A DNA stretch of 64,000 nucleotides from assembly GCF_055900595.2 (NCBI RefSeq), contig NZ_CM148325.1; one strand, written 5' to 3'. Shown here one piece after another: positions 1 through 6,516 of this stretch. The notes below the pieces were generated by a model. It was not told the origin of the DNA and made no database searches. It saw only the letters and a list, made by a program, of their open reading frames with translations. Each line of letters starts with the position of its first letter. Position 1 is the stretch's first letter. Made by a program: the position numbers and the translations under genes.

Positions 1-2
1 TG

Positions 3-302
3 GCGCAATATATGGCACAAGGTGCCTGTATGGCGCTGGAAGATGCAGTAACGCTGGGTAAGGCGCTGGCGCAGTGTGAGGGTGATGCGGCGCAAGCTTT
101 TGCGCTGTATGAGTCGGTACGTATTCCGCGTACCGCGCGCATCGTCTGGTCGACCCGTGAAATGGGGCGGGTTTATCACGCCGCAGGGGTAGAACGTCAG
201 GTACGTAATCTGCTGTGGAAAGGGAAATCGCAGGCAGAGTTTTATCGCGGCATGGAGTGGCTGTACGGCTGGAAAGAAGATAACTGTCTGCAACCACGCT
301 GA
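3..302 (+). CDS. FAD-dependent aromatic-ring monooxygenase (salicylate/3-hydroxybenzoate hydroxylase-like), C-terminal part; 5-prime end outside window
   Basis: Open frame runs from the window edge to TGA at 300-302; the GxGxxxALEDA-type motif near the C-terminus is typical of flavoprotein hydroxylases. Not the gene expected next to dusC from K-12 synteny. Confidence 0.55.
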   Translation, partial: AQYMAQGACMALEDAVTLGKALAQCEGDAAQAFALYESVRIPRTARIVWSTREMGRVYHAAGVERQVRNLLWKGKSQAEFYRGMEWLYGWKEDNCLQPR

Positions 303-420
303 GTACTTCTTACCCAATCAGGTGCACGGACGGTCCCCTCGCCCCTTTGGGGAGAGGGTTAGGGTGAGGGGAAAAATCTTGCCCGAATTAATCAGTAAGT
401 CAGTTTGTCTGCAAACACCA

Positions 421-447
421 GAGGCGCTAACATAGCGCCTCATTTTT
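421..447 (+). terminator. Rho-independent terminator downstream of the monooxygenase gene
   Basis: Perfect 9-bp stem gaggcgcta/tagcgcctc with 3-nt loop, followed by ATTTTT. Confidence 0.6.
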
Positions 448-1160
448 GTGCACAGAAAACCCCCAGCTAGGCTGGGGGTTCCGGAAAGCTTTCAGCTTTG
501 AGCCAGTTATTAAAACCCCTTTTGATTTGTTAAAACACCTTGCGGTCTGGCAACTGCAAGTGTCAAACAAGAAATCAAAAGGGGGTCCCAATGGGGGACG
601 AAAAGAGCTTAGCGCACACCCGCTGGAACTGTAAATATCACATAGTTTTTGCGCCGAAATACCGAAGACTGGCGTTTTACGGAGAGAAGCGTAGGGCGAT
701 AGGCAGTATTTTGAGAAAGCTGTGTGAGTGGAAAAGCGTACGGATTCTGGAAGCAGAGTGCTGCGCAGATCATATCCATATGCTTGTGGAAATCCCACCC
801 AAAATGAGCGTATCCGGCTTTATGGGATATCTGAAAGGGAAAAGCAGTCTGATGCTTTACGAGCAGTTTGGGGATTTGAAATTCAAATACAGAAACAGGG
901 AGTTCTGGTGCCGAGGGTACTATGTCGATACGGTGGGTAAGAACACGGCGAAGATACAGGACTACATAAAGCACCAGCTTGAAGAGGATAAAATGGGGGA
1001 GCAGTTATCGATTCCATATCCGGGCAGCCCGTTTACGGGCCGTAAGTAACGAAGTTGAATGCAAATGTCAGATCGTATGCGCCTGTTAGGGCACGGCTGG
1101 TAACAGAGCCTTACAGGCGCATTTGAAAAACCTCCGGCTATGCCGGAGGATATTTATTTT
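445..1160 (+). mobile_element. IS200 insertion sequence (IS200/IS605 family), ends approximate
   Basis: 152-aa TnpA ORF; perfect left-end hairpin cccccagc-tag-gctggggg at about 460-478; stem-loop around the start codon (RBS sequestration); right-end hairpins at about 1088-1149. Length about 710 bp matches IS200. Exact ends not determinable by eye. Confidence 0.65.
591..1049 (+). CDS. tnpA: IS200 transposase TnpA (Y1 HUH transposase)
   Basis: 152 aa, MGDEKSLAHTRWNCKYHIVF... with the HxH motif (HIHMLVEIPP) and catalytic Tyr region; matches the IS200 TnpA I remember. ORF-track 540..1049 trimmed to the ATG at 591. Confidence 0.9.
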   Translation: MGDEKSLAHTRWNCKYHIVFAPKYRRLAFYGEKRRAIGSILRKLCEWKSVRILEAECCADHIHMLVEIPPKMSVSGFMGYLKGKSSLMLYEQFGDLKFKYRNREFWCRGYYVDTVGKNTAKIQDYIKHQLEEDKMGEQLSIPYPGSPFTGRK

Positions 1161-1173
1161 TGCGGGTGATGAT

Positions 1174-2121
1174 ATGCGTGTGTTACTGGCACCGATGGAG
1201 GGTGTACTCGACTCTCTGGTGCGTGAATTGCTGACCGAAGTTAACGACTACGATCTGTGCATCACCGAGTTTGTCCGCGTGGTGGATCAACTGCTGCCGG
1301 TAAAAGTTTTTCATCGCATTTGCCCGGAGCTACAAAACGCCAGCCGAACGCCATCCGGTACGCTGGTGCGCGTGCAATTGCTGGGGCAGTTCCCACAATG
1401 GCTGGCAGAGAACGCCGCCCGTGCGGTGGAGTTAGGTTCCTGGGGTGTGGATCTTAATTGCGGCTGTCCGTCGAAAACGGTTAACGGTAGCGGCGGCGGG
1501 GCGACACTACTCAAAGATCCTGAACTCATCTACCAGGGTGCAAAAGCGATGCGTGAAGTTGTACCGGCGCATTTGCCCGTCAGTGTGAAAGTGCGTCTGG
1601 GCTGGGACAGCGGTGAGAAGAAATTTGAAATCGCCGATGCGGTTCAACAGGCTGGCGCTACGGAGTTGGTGGTGCATGGGCGGACAAAAGAGCAGGGGTA
1701 CCGCGCGGAGCATATTGACTGGCAGGCGATTGGCGAGATTCGCCAACGGCTGAATATTCCGGTGATTGCCAACGGTGAAATCTGGGACTGGCAGAGCGCG
1801 CAACAGTGTATGGCGATCAGCGGCTGTGACGCGGTGATGATTGGTCGCGGAGCGCTCAATATTCCCAATCTGAGCCGAGTGGTAAAATATAACGAACCGC
1901 GAATGCCGTGGCCGGAGGTGGTTGCTTTGCTACAAAAATATACCCGTCTGGAAAAGCAGGGCGATACTGGGTTATATCACGTTGCGCGGATTAAACAGTG
2001 GTTGAGTTATTTGCGTAAAGAATACGATGAAGCAACGGAATTATTTCAGCATGTTCGGGTGTTGAATAATTCCCTTGATATTGCAAGGGCTATTCAGACC
2101 ATTGATATCGAGAAACTCTAA
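1174..2121 (+). CDS. dusC: tRNA-dihydrouridine(16) synthase DusC
   Basis: 315 aa from [13 protein letters not shown]..., TIM-barrel Dus family; ORF-track start trimmed from 1123 to the conserved N-terminus. Confidence 0.9.
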
Positions 2122-2577: not shown

Positions 2578-2800
2578 TGGCGTTCCTTTATTTGTGAGTG
2601 TCGAATAAGTATAGGAAAAAACGAAGCCCTTTGCCGTTACTCATAAGTGATTAAGATAAATCGGAGAATATCATTCACTTACTGTATATTTTTCTGAATA
2701 TGTCGTTTTATTGCCACTGATGTATTGCCACGCGAAACTAAAAAATATATTGCATCACACGGTAATCTCCGCGCACCTTTTCTTACCTGACTATTCCTCC

Positions 2801-4237
2801 ATGAATCGTGATTCCTTTTACCCAGCCATCGCCTGTTTTCCTCTGTTACTGATGCTGGCCGGGTGTGCGCCTATGCATGAAACCCGCCAGGCGTTAAGCC
2901 AGCAAACACCCGCTGCGCAAGTTGACACCGCATTACCTACGGCGCTGAAAAATGGTTGGCCAGACAGCCAATGGTGGCTGGAGTATCACGATAATCAACT
3001 CACTTCATTAATTAACTATGCACTGCAGAACGCACCGGATATGCAGGTGGCTGAACAGCGCATTCAGCTGGCTGAAGCCCAGGCGAAGGCAGTTGCCACT
3101 CAGGATGGCCCTCAGATCGATTTTTCTGCGGATATGGAGCGGCAAAAAATGTCGGCAGAAGGGCTAATGGGGCCGTTTGCTCTGAACGATCCTGCCGCAG
3201 GTACGACCGGTCCGTGGTACACCAACGGTACTTTTGGCTTAACGGCGGGCTGGCATCTCGATATCTGGGGAAAGAATCGGGCGGAGGTAACTGCTCGCCT
3301 GGGTACGGTTAAAGCACGAGCGGCGGAACGCGAGCAAACCCGCCAATTGCTGGCTGGCAGCGTTGCCCGCCTTTACTGGGAGTGGCAAACCCAGGCAGCG
3401 TTAAACACTGTTTTGCAGCAAATCGAAAAAGAGCAGAACACCATTATCGCGACCGATCGCCAGCTATATCAGAACGGGATTACTTCTTCAGTTGAAGGTG
3501 TGGAAACCGATATTAATGCCAGCAAGACCCGGCAGCAGCTCAACGATGTCGTGGGAAAAATGAAAATTATTGAGGCACGGTTAAGCGCACTTACAAATCA
3601 CCAGATAAAGTCATTGAAGCTTAAACCGGTTGAGTTGCCGAAAGTGGCAAGTCAGCTTCCTGATGAACTGGGGTATTCATTGCTGGCACGGCGGGCAGAT
3701 TTGCAGGCAGCGCATTGGTACGTTGAGTCATCGTTAAGCACCATTGATGCGGCAAAAGCGGCATTTTACCCTGACATCAACCTGATGGCCTTCCTGCAAC
3801 AGGATGCGTTGCACTTAAGCGATTTGTTCCGTCATTCCGCGCAGCAAATGGGCGTTACGGCAGGCCTGACGCTACCCATTTTCGATAGTGGTCGTCTTAA
3901 CGCCAACCTCGATATTGCAAAAGCCGAAAGCAACTTGTCTATCGCCAGCTACAACAAAGCGGTGGTTGAAGCGGTGAATGACGTGGCGCGGGCAGCCAGT
4001 CAGGTTCAGACGCTGGTGGAGAAAAACCAGCATCAGGCGCAAATTGAGCGCGATGCCTTGCGTGTGGTAGGTCTTGCGCAGGCCCGCTTTAACGCGGGTA
4101 TCATTGCTGGTTCCCGCGTCAGCGAAGCCAGGATCCCGGCGCTGCGTGAGCGGGCCAATGGCCTGTTATTGCAAGGGCAGTGGCTGGATGCCTCCATTCA
4201 ACTCACTGGTGCGTTGGGCGGGGGGTACAAACGCTGA
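2801..4237 (+). CDS. mdtQ: Outer-membrane efflux lipoprotein (NodT/OMF family), intact
   Basis: 478 aa from MNRDSFYPAIACFPLLLMLAGCAP (lipobox LAGC); ORF-track start 2711 is an upstream TTG extension. K-12 mdtQ (yohG) is a pseudogene by my recollection; here the frame is open. Confidence 0.8.
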   Translation: MNRDSFYPAIACFPLLLMLAGCAPMHETRQALSQQTPAAQVDTALPTALKNGWPDSQWWLEYHDNQLTSLINYALQNAPDMQVAEQRIQLAEAQAKAVATQDGPQIDFSADMERQKMSAEGLMGPFALNDPAAGTTGPWYTNGTFGLTAGWHLDIWGKNRAEVTARLGTVKARAAEREQTRQLLAGSVARLYWEWQTQAALNTVLQQIEKEQNTIIATDRQLYQNGITSSVEGVETDINASKTRQQLNDVVGKMKIIEARLSALTNHQIKSLKLKPVELPKVASQLPDELGYSLLARRADLQAAHWYVESSLSTIDAAKAAFYPDINLMAFLQQDALHLSDLFRHSAQQMGVTAGLTLPIFDSGRLNANLDIAKAESNLSIASYNKAVVEAVNDVARAASQVQTLVEKNQHQAQIERDALRVVGLAQARFNAGIIAGSRVSEARIPALRERANGLLLQGQWLDASIQLTGALGGGYKR

Positions 4238-4289
4238 TGATATACGCCTTCTATACTTAACGTTTATTCAGCGTTAAGTGGAGAACTCG

Positions 4290-5051
4290 ATGGTACAGGT
4301 CGCGATTATTACCGCTTCCGATTCGGGGATCGGCAAAGAGTGCGCGTTATTACTGGCGCAGCAGGGTTTTGATATTGGTATTACCTGGCACTCAGATGAA
4401 GAAGGGGCAAAAGATACCGCGCGTGAGGTGGTTAGCCACGGCGTACGTGCGGAGATGGTGCAGCTCGATCTCGGTAAACTGCCAGAGGGGGCACTGGCGC
4501 TGGAGAAACTTATTCAACGGCTGGGGCGCATCGATGTACTCGTGAATAATGCGGGCACAATGACCAAAGCGCCGTTTCTTGATATGGCTTTCGATGAGTG
4601 GCGCAAGATTTTTACCGTTGATGTTGATGGTGCATTTTTATGCTCGCAAATTGCGGCCCGCCAGATGGTGAAACAAGGGCAGGGCGGTCGCATCATCAAC
4701 ATTACGTCGGTACATGAGCATACGCCGCTGCCGGATGCCAGCGCCTATACAGCTGCTAAACATGCACTCGGTGGGCTAACCAAAGCGATGGCGCTTGAGC
4801 TGGTCAGGTATAAGATTTTGGTGAATGCAGTCGCGCCTGGGGCTATCGCCACACCAATGAATGGCATGGATGACGGCGACGTGAAGCCCGACGCGGAGCC
4901 TTCGATTCCCCTGCGGCGTTTCGGCGCAACGCATGAGATTGCCAGCCTGGTGGCGTGGTTATGCTCTGAAGGCGCAAATTACACCACCGGGCAGTCGTTA
5001 ATTGTCGATGGTGGCTTTATGCTGGCGAATCCGCAGTTCAACCCAGAATAG
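4290..5051 (+). CDS. yohF: Short-chain dehydrogenase/reductase YohF
   Basis: 253 aa; TASDSGIGKE cofactor-binding motif and YxxxK active-site motif (YTAAKHAL). Confidence 0.85.
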   Translation: MVQVAIITASDSGIGKECALLLAQQGFDIGITWHSDEEGAKDTAREVVSHGVRAEMVQLDLGKLPEGALALEKLIQRLGRIDVLVNNAGTMTKAPFLDMAFDEWRKIFTVDVDGAFLCSQIAARQMVKQGQGGRIINITSVHEHTPLPDASAYTAAKHALGGLTKAMALELVRYKILVNAVAPGAIATPMNGMDDGDVKPDAEPSIPLRRFGATHEIASLVAWLCSEGANYTTGQSLIVDGGFMLANPQFNPE

Positions 5052-5928: not shown

Positions 5929-6516
5929 ATGAGCCATGTCTGGGGACTGTTTTCCCATCCCGATCGTGAAATGCAGGTGATTAATCGCGAAAACGAAACG
6001 ATTTCTCACCATTACACCCACCACGTTTTGCTGATGGCGGCGATTCCGGTGATTTGCGCCTTCATTGGCACCACACAAATTGGCTGGAATTTTGGCGATG
6101 GCACCATCCTGAAGTTATCCTGGTTTACCGGACTGGCGCTGGCCGTCTTGTTTTATGGCGTTATGCTGGCTGGGGTCGCGGTGATGGGGCGGGTCATCTG
6201 GTGGATGGCGCGCAATTATCCGCAGCGTCCGTCACTTGCGCACTGCATGGTCTTTGCGGGCTACGTTGCAACTCCGCTGTTTTTAAGCGGTCTGGTGGCG
6301 CTTTATCCGCTGGTCTGGTTGTGTGCGCTGGTCGGCACGGTGGCGCTGTTTTACACCGGCTACCTGCTTTATCTCGGTATTCCGAGCTTCCTGAATATCA
6401 ACAAAGAGGAAGGCCTTAGCTTCTCCAGTTCGACGCTGGCGATTGGCGTGCTGGTACTGGAAGTGCTGCTCGCCCTTACCGTTATACTATGGGGCTACGG
6501 TTATCGTTTGTTCTAG
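5929..6516 (+). CDS. yohC: Yip1-family inner membrane protein YohC
   Basis: 195 aa from MSHVWGLFSHP..., multi-pass hydrophobic; GGGG RBS upstream. Confidence 0.85.
   Translation: MSHVWGLFSHPDREMQVINRENETISHHYTHHVLLMAAIPVICAFIGTTQIGWNFGDGTILKLSWFTGLALAVLFYGVMLAGVAVMGRVIWWMARNYPQRPSLAHCMVFAGYVATPLFLSGLVALYPLVWLCALVGTVALFYTGYLLYLGIPSFLNINKEEGLSFSSSTLAIGVLVLEVLLALTVILWGYGYRLF

Follow-up and report, generated by a model that had tools for sequence, protein, structure and literature searches.

In Escherichia coli K-12, yohJ and dusC are divergent neighbours only 238 bp apart, and the K-12 annotation bears out what a preliminary description of the present DNA had stated for yohJK. In the stretch analysed here, 64,000 nucleotides of contig NZ_CM148325.1 (assembly GCF_055900595.2) and in the following called the window, the position to the left of dusC is taken instead by the end of a different gene and by an IS200-type insertion sequence. 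The locus raises three questions: which gene is cut by the window edge, where yohJK are to be found, and which of the two arrangements is the older one. The preliminary description had read the cut gene as the C-terminus of a FAD-dependent aromatic hydroxylase and had placed it either in an accessory aromatic-catabolism island or at a rearrangement joint. We come to the view that bases 1-302 are very probably the 3' end of mhbM, the last gene of a cluster mhbR / mhbT-mhbD(gtdA)-mhbH-mhbI(maiA)-mhbM that stands in its native place between yohJ and dusC, and that this cluster is an old resident of the locus which has been replaced in most E. coli. The features on which this view is built are collected in Table 1. 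Loci fetched for comparison are cited by L numbers, with L001 standing for the locus of E. coli Z0117EC0005 and L003 for that of K-12.

Table 1 Features at the left end of the window, with positions in window coordinates
Feature	Position	Strand	Basis and remarks
mhbM 3' end	1..302	+	frame from base 3, stop codon TGA 300-302; residues 299-397 of a 397-aa protein
Variable intergenic segment of 112 nt with BoxC/PIT/TMECO repeat	309..420	no strand	comparison with L007, L008 and other genera
Intrinsic-terminator-like hairpin	421..447	+	stem 421-429 with 433-441, loop ACA, then A and T-run; terminator scan and fold
IS200C-type insertion sequence, ~712 bp	448..1159	+	alignment with uninterrupted sites in L001 and L002; ends uncertain by a few T residues
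5'-UTR/STnc490 region	458-581		within IS200C; Rfam STnc490, 146 bits
tnpA	591-1049		within IS200C; Pfam Y1_Tnp, E 7.9e-37
IS200C terminal hairpins	458-480 and 1131-1149		terminator scan and fold
dusC (tRNA dihydrouridine(16) synthase)	1174..2121	+	ORF list and annotation of co-linear genomes; conserved right-hand neighbour of the mhb cluster

The frame at the left edge is open over 99 codons (3-299) without a break; the 96 residues of the ORF list are counted from the first ATG, at base 12. The truncation of the gene is due to the window edge and does not exist in the genome. Over its whole length, the 99-residue fragment can be aligned with positions 300-397 of the NCBIfam equivalog model NF006021 for 3-hydroxybenzoate 6-monooxygenase, which has 398 positions (177 bits, E 4.6e-52). 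The curated cutoff of this model, 459 bits, is out of reach for 99 residues alone, and the family assignment was made with the full-length MhbM protein of E. coli Z0117EC0005 (397 residues, identical over the overlap), which scores 758 bits. At the DNA level, bases 1-302 are 100% identical to L001:12001-12302, annotated as 3-hydroxybenzoate 6-monooxygenase in that genome. The full-length ortholog also matches Pfam FAD_binding_3 (E 1.5e-25), so that the class A flavoprotein monooxygenase domain is present; a Pfam search with the 99-residue fragment, which is too short for FAD_binding_3, returned no match. The fragment opens inside the last FAD-binding (GD) motif, of which the window holds the tail AQYMAQGACMALEDA, aligned to the motif in 4bjy, while the N-terminal motifs lie outside the window. 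The reading as the C-terminus of a FAD-dependent aromatic hydroxylase is thus confirmed. The solved structures nearest to the full-length ortholog form the series 4bjy/4bjz/4bk1-3 (best 4bjy, E 6.7e-79), which we take to be the Rhodococcus jostii 3-hydroxybenzoate 6-hydroxylase.

That the protein is instead a hydroxylase of other specificity, e.g., a salicylate 1-monooxygenase or a urate hydroxylase, is highly improbable. The depositors of the closest structure named it 'probable salicylate monooxygenase', and the fragment weakly matches PRK06475 (2e-15), HpxO (2.9e-9) and salicylate_mono (9.5e-5), but NF006021 is ahead by about 120 bits for the fragment and by about 500 bits for the full-length protein and is the sole model above its own curated cutoff. 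The genetic context also argues for 3-hydroxybenzoate as the substrate, since mhbM resides in an operon with an annotated 3-hydroxybenzoate transporter gene, mhbT, and genes for three enzymes of the gentisate pathway. In addition, the ortholog at the same locus in the Klebsiella oxytoca group is 91% identical, and the mhb cluster of Klebsiella M5a1 is a characterised reference (PMC3572157). Over the last 100 codons of mhbM, E. coli alleles at the native locus differ by 12-21 synonymous and not a single non-synonymous substitution; for mhbM and its O157 counterpart, codon differences amount to 55 synonymous and 8 non-synonymous ones. These counts indicate that the gene for the 3-hydroxybenzoate 6-monooxygenase is under purifying selection, i.e., an intact and selectively maintained catabolic gene.

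Among 5426 complete E. coli genomes, that of Z0117EC0005 is the closest to the window (98.9% over 12.8 kb). It is 100% identical over positions 1-447 and 99.96% identical for 7.8 kb after the insertion sequence. Its annotated gene order is cdd-yohK-yohJ-mhbR-mhbT-gtdA-FAH-maiA-mhbM-dusC. One strand carries preA-preT-yeiS-sanA-cdd-yohK-yohJ together with the gene for the LysR regulator, and the opposite strand carries mhbT, gtdA, the gene for a FAH-family hydrolase, maiA and mhbM. On the right-hand side, mhbM is followed by dusC, yohP, mdtQ, yohF, yohD and yohC, and exactly these right-hand genes are present in the window. The cluster is arranged in the same way in E. coli O157:H7 SS52, EC21Z-048, 2014C-3338 and 1504D004, and mhbM was found in the context of a gentisate-pathway operon in Z0117EC0005 and four further E. 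coli lineages as well as in about 25 species from other genera. Within the window, mhbM is represented by its last 99 codons, the rest of the gene and of the cluster being taken from the near-identical genome, and on this basis we infer that the remainder of the mhb cluster continues beyond the left edge, with yohJK following at a distance of about 6 kb. The point at which the window starts within mhbM is arbitrary. As an aside, mdtQ (yohG, window positions 2711-4237) is an intact open reading frame of 508 codons; it is a 1437-nt gene in the annotation of relatives and an annotated pseudogene in K-12.

These comparisons also bear on the proposed rearrangement joint, i.e., on the idea that dusC has moved beside an unrelated aromatic-catabolism region, with yohJK residing elsewhere. 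What speaks for such a joint is the departure from the K-12 gene order and the IS200 at the junction, and nothing more. In the genome with 100% identity, however, yohJ-yohK-cdd lie directly beyond the 6.2-kb cluster, and they come directly after mhbR in every native-locus genome examined. Furthermore, removal of the IS200 yields the uninterrupted mhbM-dusC spacer base for base, as expected for a simple insertion and not for a recombination scar. A rearrangement is therefore extremely improbable, and this part of the preliminary description has to be given up in favour of a co-linear locus with the mhb cluster between yohJ and dusC.

The distribution of the cluster within the species is uneven. 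mhbM is carried by 612 of the 5426 complete genomes, i.e., by 11%, a share that would be too high across lineages if O157:H7, to which many of the listed carriers belong, is over-represented among complete genomes. It lies within about 650 bp of dusC in 503 genomes, and some 100 E. coli genomes have the cluster at other places. The K-12-type yohJ-dusC junction is present in 4918 genomes. The mhb cluster is thus variable in E. coli in the sense of presence and absence, and the possibility, considered in the preliminary description, that the hydroxylase gene is conserved beside dusC in most E. coli is contradicted by these counts.

In principle, a presence/absence polymorphism of this kind can arise in two ways: Either a minority of E. 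coli has gained the cluster by insertion into a K-12-like yohJ-dusC spacer, or the majority has lost it. The first reading, a horizontally acquired island, draws on the low number of carriers (612 of 5426) and on the existence of mobile copies. On the ETEC-type plasmid pOkiPb01690_1, the cluster is situated between IS1 and IS1414 near the ST-I enterotoxin gene (L006 4350-10296), and in the chromosome of E. coli LAU-OXA it is part of an IS66/ISEc60/CP4-like island beside yghD-gsp (L090 3239-9354). When the chromosomal mobile copy is aligned with the native locus, the match spans L001 6239-12354 and starts no more than 6 bp from position 6233, the K-12 breakpoint. It could be that some native-locus copies are re-acquisitions by recombination and do not go back to uninterrupted descent. 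Against an island at the native locus stands the annotation of the cluster and its surroundings in Z0117EC0005, O157:H7 SS52 and two further E. coli lineages, which shows neither mobility genes such as an integrase or IS nor a tRNA gene. The G+C content of the cluster, 55% as compared with 50-52.5% for the flanks, also counts against an island. When mobility genes, a tRNA boundary, composition and absence from sister taxa were considered together, the locus did not qualify as a genomic island.

Further evidence against the island reading comes from other genera. Orthologs of MhbM with 87-98% identity are present in many Enterobacteriaceae (one genome per species was scanned). With flanking genes placed by tblastn, the order cdd-yohK-yohJ-mhbR-mhbT-mhbD-mhbH-mhbI-mhbM-dusC was found in about 25 species representatives from at least 10 genera of the Enterobacteriaceae, among them several Citrobacter species, the Klebsiella oxytoca group, Pseudocitrobacter, Kluyvera, Pluralibacter, Pseudenterobacter, Shimwellia and unnamed Enterobacteriaceae. 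Escherichia albertii shows the order of the cluster on a contig that ends before dusC, and the stretch fetched for Salmonella enterica subsp. diarizonae covers the right-hand part, mhbH-mhbI-mhbM-dusC-mdtQ. Serratia and more distant genera have the cluster without the yohJ and dusC flanks. Across genera, the Mhb proteins are 81-94% identical, in the same range as Cdd, YohK, YohJ and DusC, and within E. coli the 3' ends of mhbM are 93-96% identical, the adjacent dusC-pbpG backbone 95.5-96.2%. Position and orientation are the same in E. albertii, Citrobacter, Salmonella, Klebsiella, Kluyvera, Pseudocitrobacter, Pluralibacter and Shimwellia, and the divergence of the cluster tracks that of its flanking genes. 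A further observation concerns a 9-kb contig (L009, JAIJJM010000061.1) labelled as a metagenome-assembled genome of Collinsella sp., which carries mhbR-mhbT-mhbD-mhbM; the encoded proteins are 97-99% identical to those of E. coli, and the contig almost certainly comes from Escherichia and was mis-binned.

The K-12 sequence itself carries a trace of the cluster. On the yohJ side, the sequence common to K-12 and Z0117EC0005 extends to 72 nt upstream of this gene; on the dusC side, it resumes shortly before the hairpin. The stretch in between measures 121 nt in K-12 as opposed to 6184 nt in Z0117EC0005. The exact position of the right breakpoint can be read from alleles with a short mhbM-dusC spacer of 61 nt after the stop codon, TGA-GTA-CTTTAATCCGCTGACC-…-hairpin-T7-GCGGGTGATGAT-ATG, which were found in E. 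coli EC21Z-048 and 2014C-3338, Citrobacter werkmanii, C. braakii, C. portucalensis and a genome of an Escherichia clade. K-12 keeps CTTTAATCCGCTGACC-hairpin-T7, a stretch that begins 6 nt after the mhbM stop codon in the short-spacer alleles, and the right K-12 breakpoint consequently lies 6 nt after this codon. Since K-12 retains the sequence next to mhbM including the terminator, and since synteny extends across genera, its layout is most likely derived by loss or replacement and would not be a still unoccupied insertion site. A clean deletion does not account for this layout, because a filler of about 108 nt without detectable source takes the place of the cluster: blastn-short against all fetched loci and the window matched only the last 24 nt, which correspond to the sequence just downstream of mhbM. 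In the K-12 yohJ-dusC spacer (L003 6432-6552), these roughly 108 nt correspond to nothing in the genomes with the cluster or in the fetched loci of other genera; they contain a hairpin, AGAGGGATTGC-AGTT-TGCAGCAATCCCTCT.

Taken together, the sequence comparisons make it most likely that the mhb cluster is an old resident of the yohJ-dusC locus in the Enterobacteriaceae, ancestral rather than inserted, and an island acquired by a minority of E. coli is unlikely. Of the accessory aromatic-catabolism island in the preliminary description, the aromatic-catabolism cluster and its variability in E. coli hold. Its status as acquired DNA is doubtful in view of the synteny in at least 10 genera, the lack of annotated mobility genes and the 3' sequence kept by K-12.

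We now turn to the DNA between mhbM and dusC. The hairpin GAGGCGCTA-ACA-TAGCGCCTC (421-441) has a stem of 9 bp, six of them G-C pairs, and a loop of 3 nt. Its energy is -16 kcal/mol, and none of 200 shuffled sequences folded as well (z -4.7 to -6.2). The T-run that follows is T7 in intact alleles, T6 in O157 and T5 here, where it is shortened by the IS200. A G+C-rich hairpin, a U-tract and a gene upstream on the same strand, the hallmarks of a rho-independent terminator, are all found at 421-447, and hairpin and T-run are likely the terminator of the mhb operon, as predicted from these features. The hairpin is 119 nt away from the mhbM stop codon here and 22 nt in short-spacer alleles. In uninterrupted alleles, 12 nt separate its end from the dusC start codon; in the window, the same 12 nt are positions 1162-1173. 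Between mhbM and dusC, the stem is nearly invariant and the loop variable in every genus examined that has a compact spacer, including E. albertii, Citrobacter, Salmonella, Klebsiella, Pseudocitrobacter, Pluralibacter, Shimwellia and others. The same hairpin precedes dusC in K-12 (L003 6399-6426), which has no mhbM. The hydroxylase gene had initially been credited with a terminator of its own; the terminator-like hairpin is real, but it is not specific to this gene and belongs to the conserved backbone.

Because the stem is almost unchanged in at least 10 genera and survived the loss of mhb in K-12, the hairpin may be more than a terminator of the mhb operon. One could imagine that hairpin and T-run form a conserved cis element that sets or insulates dusC expression, e.g., by control of read-through, and that they serve at the same time as a recurrent landing site for IS200, in which case the insertion described here may have uncoupled or silenced dusC. 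We put this forward tentatively and consider it rather doubtful. In a simple scan of three sequences (the window, K-12 and a short-spacer allele), no sigma-70-like promoter for dusC was detected between hairpin and dusC or upstream of the hairpin.

The segment at 309-420 stands where the short 61-nt spacer, taken as the ancestral form, has 14 nt, TAATCCGCTGACCG. It is also present in O157 and Z0117EC0005. Table 1 of PMC4666352 lists the core of its repeat, CCCTCGCCCCTTTGGGGAGAGGGTTAGGGTGAGGGG (336-371), in identical form as TMECO no. 7 (type A mm). TMECO elements are BoxC/PIT repeats forming intrastrand triplexes, and such motifs have been linked to local genomic variability (PMC4666352). The core is dispersed: E. 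coli genomes have it at about 8 places (median), and the window contains one copy. We note that the repeat at 336-371 sits at the edge of a presence/absence polymorphism.

The insertion sequence resides in the T-run of the terminator, and excision of 448-1159 restores the uninterrupted site with T7. It has a Y1 (HUH) transposase and subterminal hairpins and shows no target duplication, in line with the IS200/IS605 family (PMC4513863), whose members lack terminal inverted repeats. The pairing of the cluster with this IS200C insertion was not found in any of the 5426 complete E. coli genomes, and integration of the element between the operon terminator and dusC is the only strain-specific event at this locus. 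A sequence-distinct IS200C occupies the same T-run upstream of dusC in the unrelated strain B19374, which does not have the cluster, and in strain 7/2 a further copy is found just downstream of creD, behind the T-run of another terminator-like hairpin. In both comparison copies (L004 9026-9744; L005 about 4025-4737), tnpA is annotated as 'IS200C family transposase'. As a terminator-like hairpin precedes all three IS200C copies, which sit within its T-run or immediately behind it, we suggest that the element prefers T-runs 3' of hairpins. Also note that the IS200C in the window places two more hairpins between any upstream promoter and dusC.

Class A flavoprotein monooxygenases of the MhbM type use FAD and NAD(P)H and hydroxylate 3-hydroxybenzoate para to its hydroxyl group, at C6, which yields gentisate. 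By analogy, 3-hydroxybenzoate would be imported by MhbT and converted to gentisate by MhbM with FAD and NAD(P)H, an activity that is predicted for this strain. Gentisate 1,2-dioxygenase (mhbD/gtdA) would then open the ring, MaiA/MhbI would isomerise maleylpyruvate, and hydrolysis of fumarylpyruvate by MhbH would provide fumarate and pyruvate. These roles in the mhb/gentisate pathway have been described for Klebsiella M5a1 and Salmonella (PMC3572157). The operon would be activated by the LysR regulator MhbR, and its transcription would end at the hairpin and T-run at 421-447. In most E. coli including K-12, the cluster would have been replaced by about 108 nt of unrelated sequence while the terminator was kept, with loss as the probable direction of the event. 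In the genome studied here, the BoxC-bearing segment and, later, IS200C would have been added between mhbM and dusC.

For the E. coli mhb cluster, literature searches returned only indirect references, and 'mhbM' mostly led to the abbreviation of an unrelated urinary metabolite. The cluster as such is already known and routinely annotated. The refinements offered here are its ancestral status at the locus and the recognition that the terminator is part of the shared backbone. K-12 should not be regarded as the reference state at yohJ-dusC: the 3-hydroxybenzoate/gentisate cluster probably is the older arrangement in the Enterobacteriaceae and appears to have been lost by most E. coli.

Among known systems, the mhbRTDHIM cluster of Klebsiella M5a1 has the same gene order, with a divergent gene for the LysR regulator followed by mhbT-D-H-I-M, and the pathway roles assigned above are as given in PMC3572157. 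Representatives of the Klebsiella oxytoca group have the cluster at the same yohJ-dusC locus, and their MhbM proteins are 91% identical. In comparison with Klebsiella M5a1, we are dealing with an E. coli allele, known in the window from its last 99 codons and with predicted activity. The gentisate cluster of E. coli O157:H7 is the same cluster at the same locus. The DNA of its mhbM 3' end is 96.3% identical, without any amino-acid change in the last 100 codons, and its gentisate 1,2-dioxygenase GtdA matches PDB entry 2d40 (E 2.8e-241), so that a structure is available. O157 differs in having a run of six T residues and no IS200 between terminator and dusC. The 3-hydroxybenzoate 6-hydroxylase of Rhodococcus jostii RHA1 (4bjy/4bjz) is a distant ortholog from an actinobacterium. 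It aligns over residues 5-393 including the motif GDAAHP...QG(A)xMAxEDA, in which the fragment in the window begins. With IS200 elements of the IS200/IS605 family (IS200C type), the insertion shares the Y1 transposase, the left-end hairpin, the STnc490/5'-tnpA RNA region and the absence of a target duplication; here, it only separates mhbM and the terminator from dusC.
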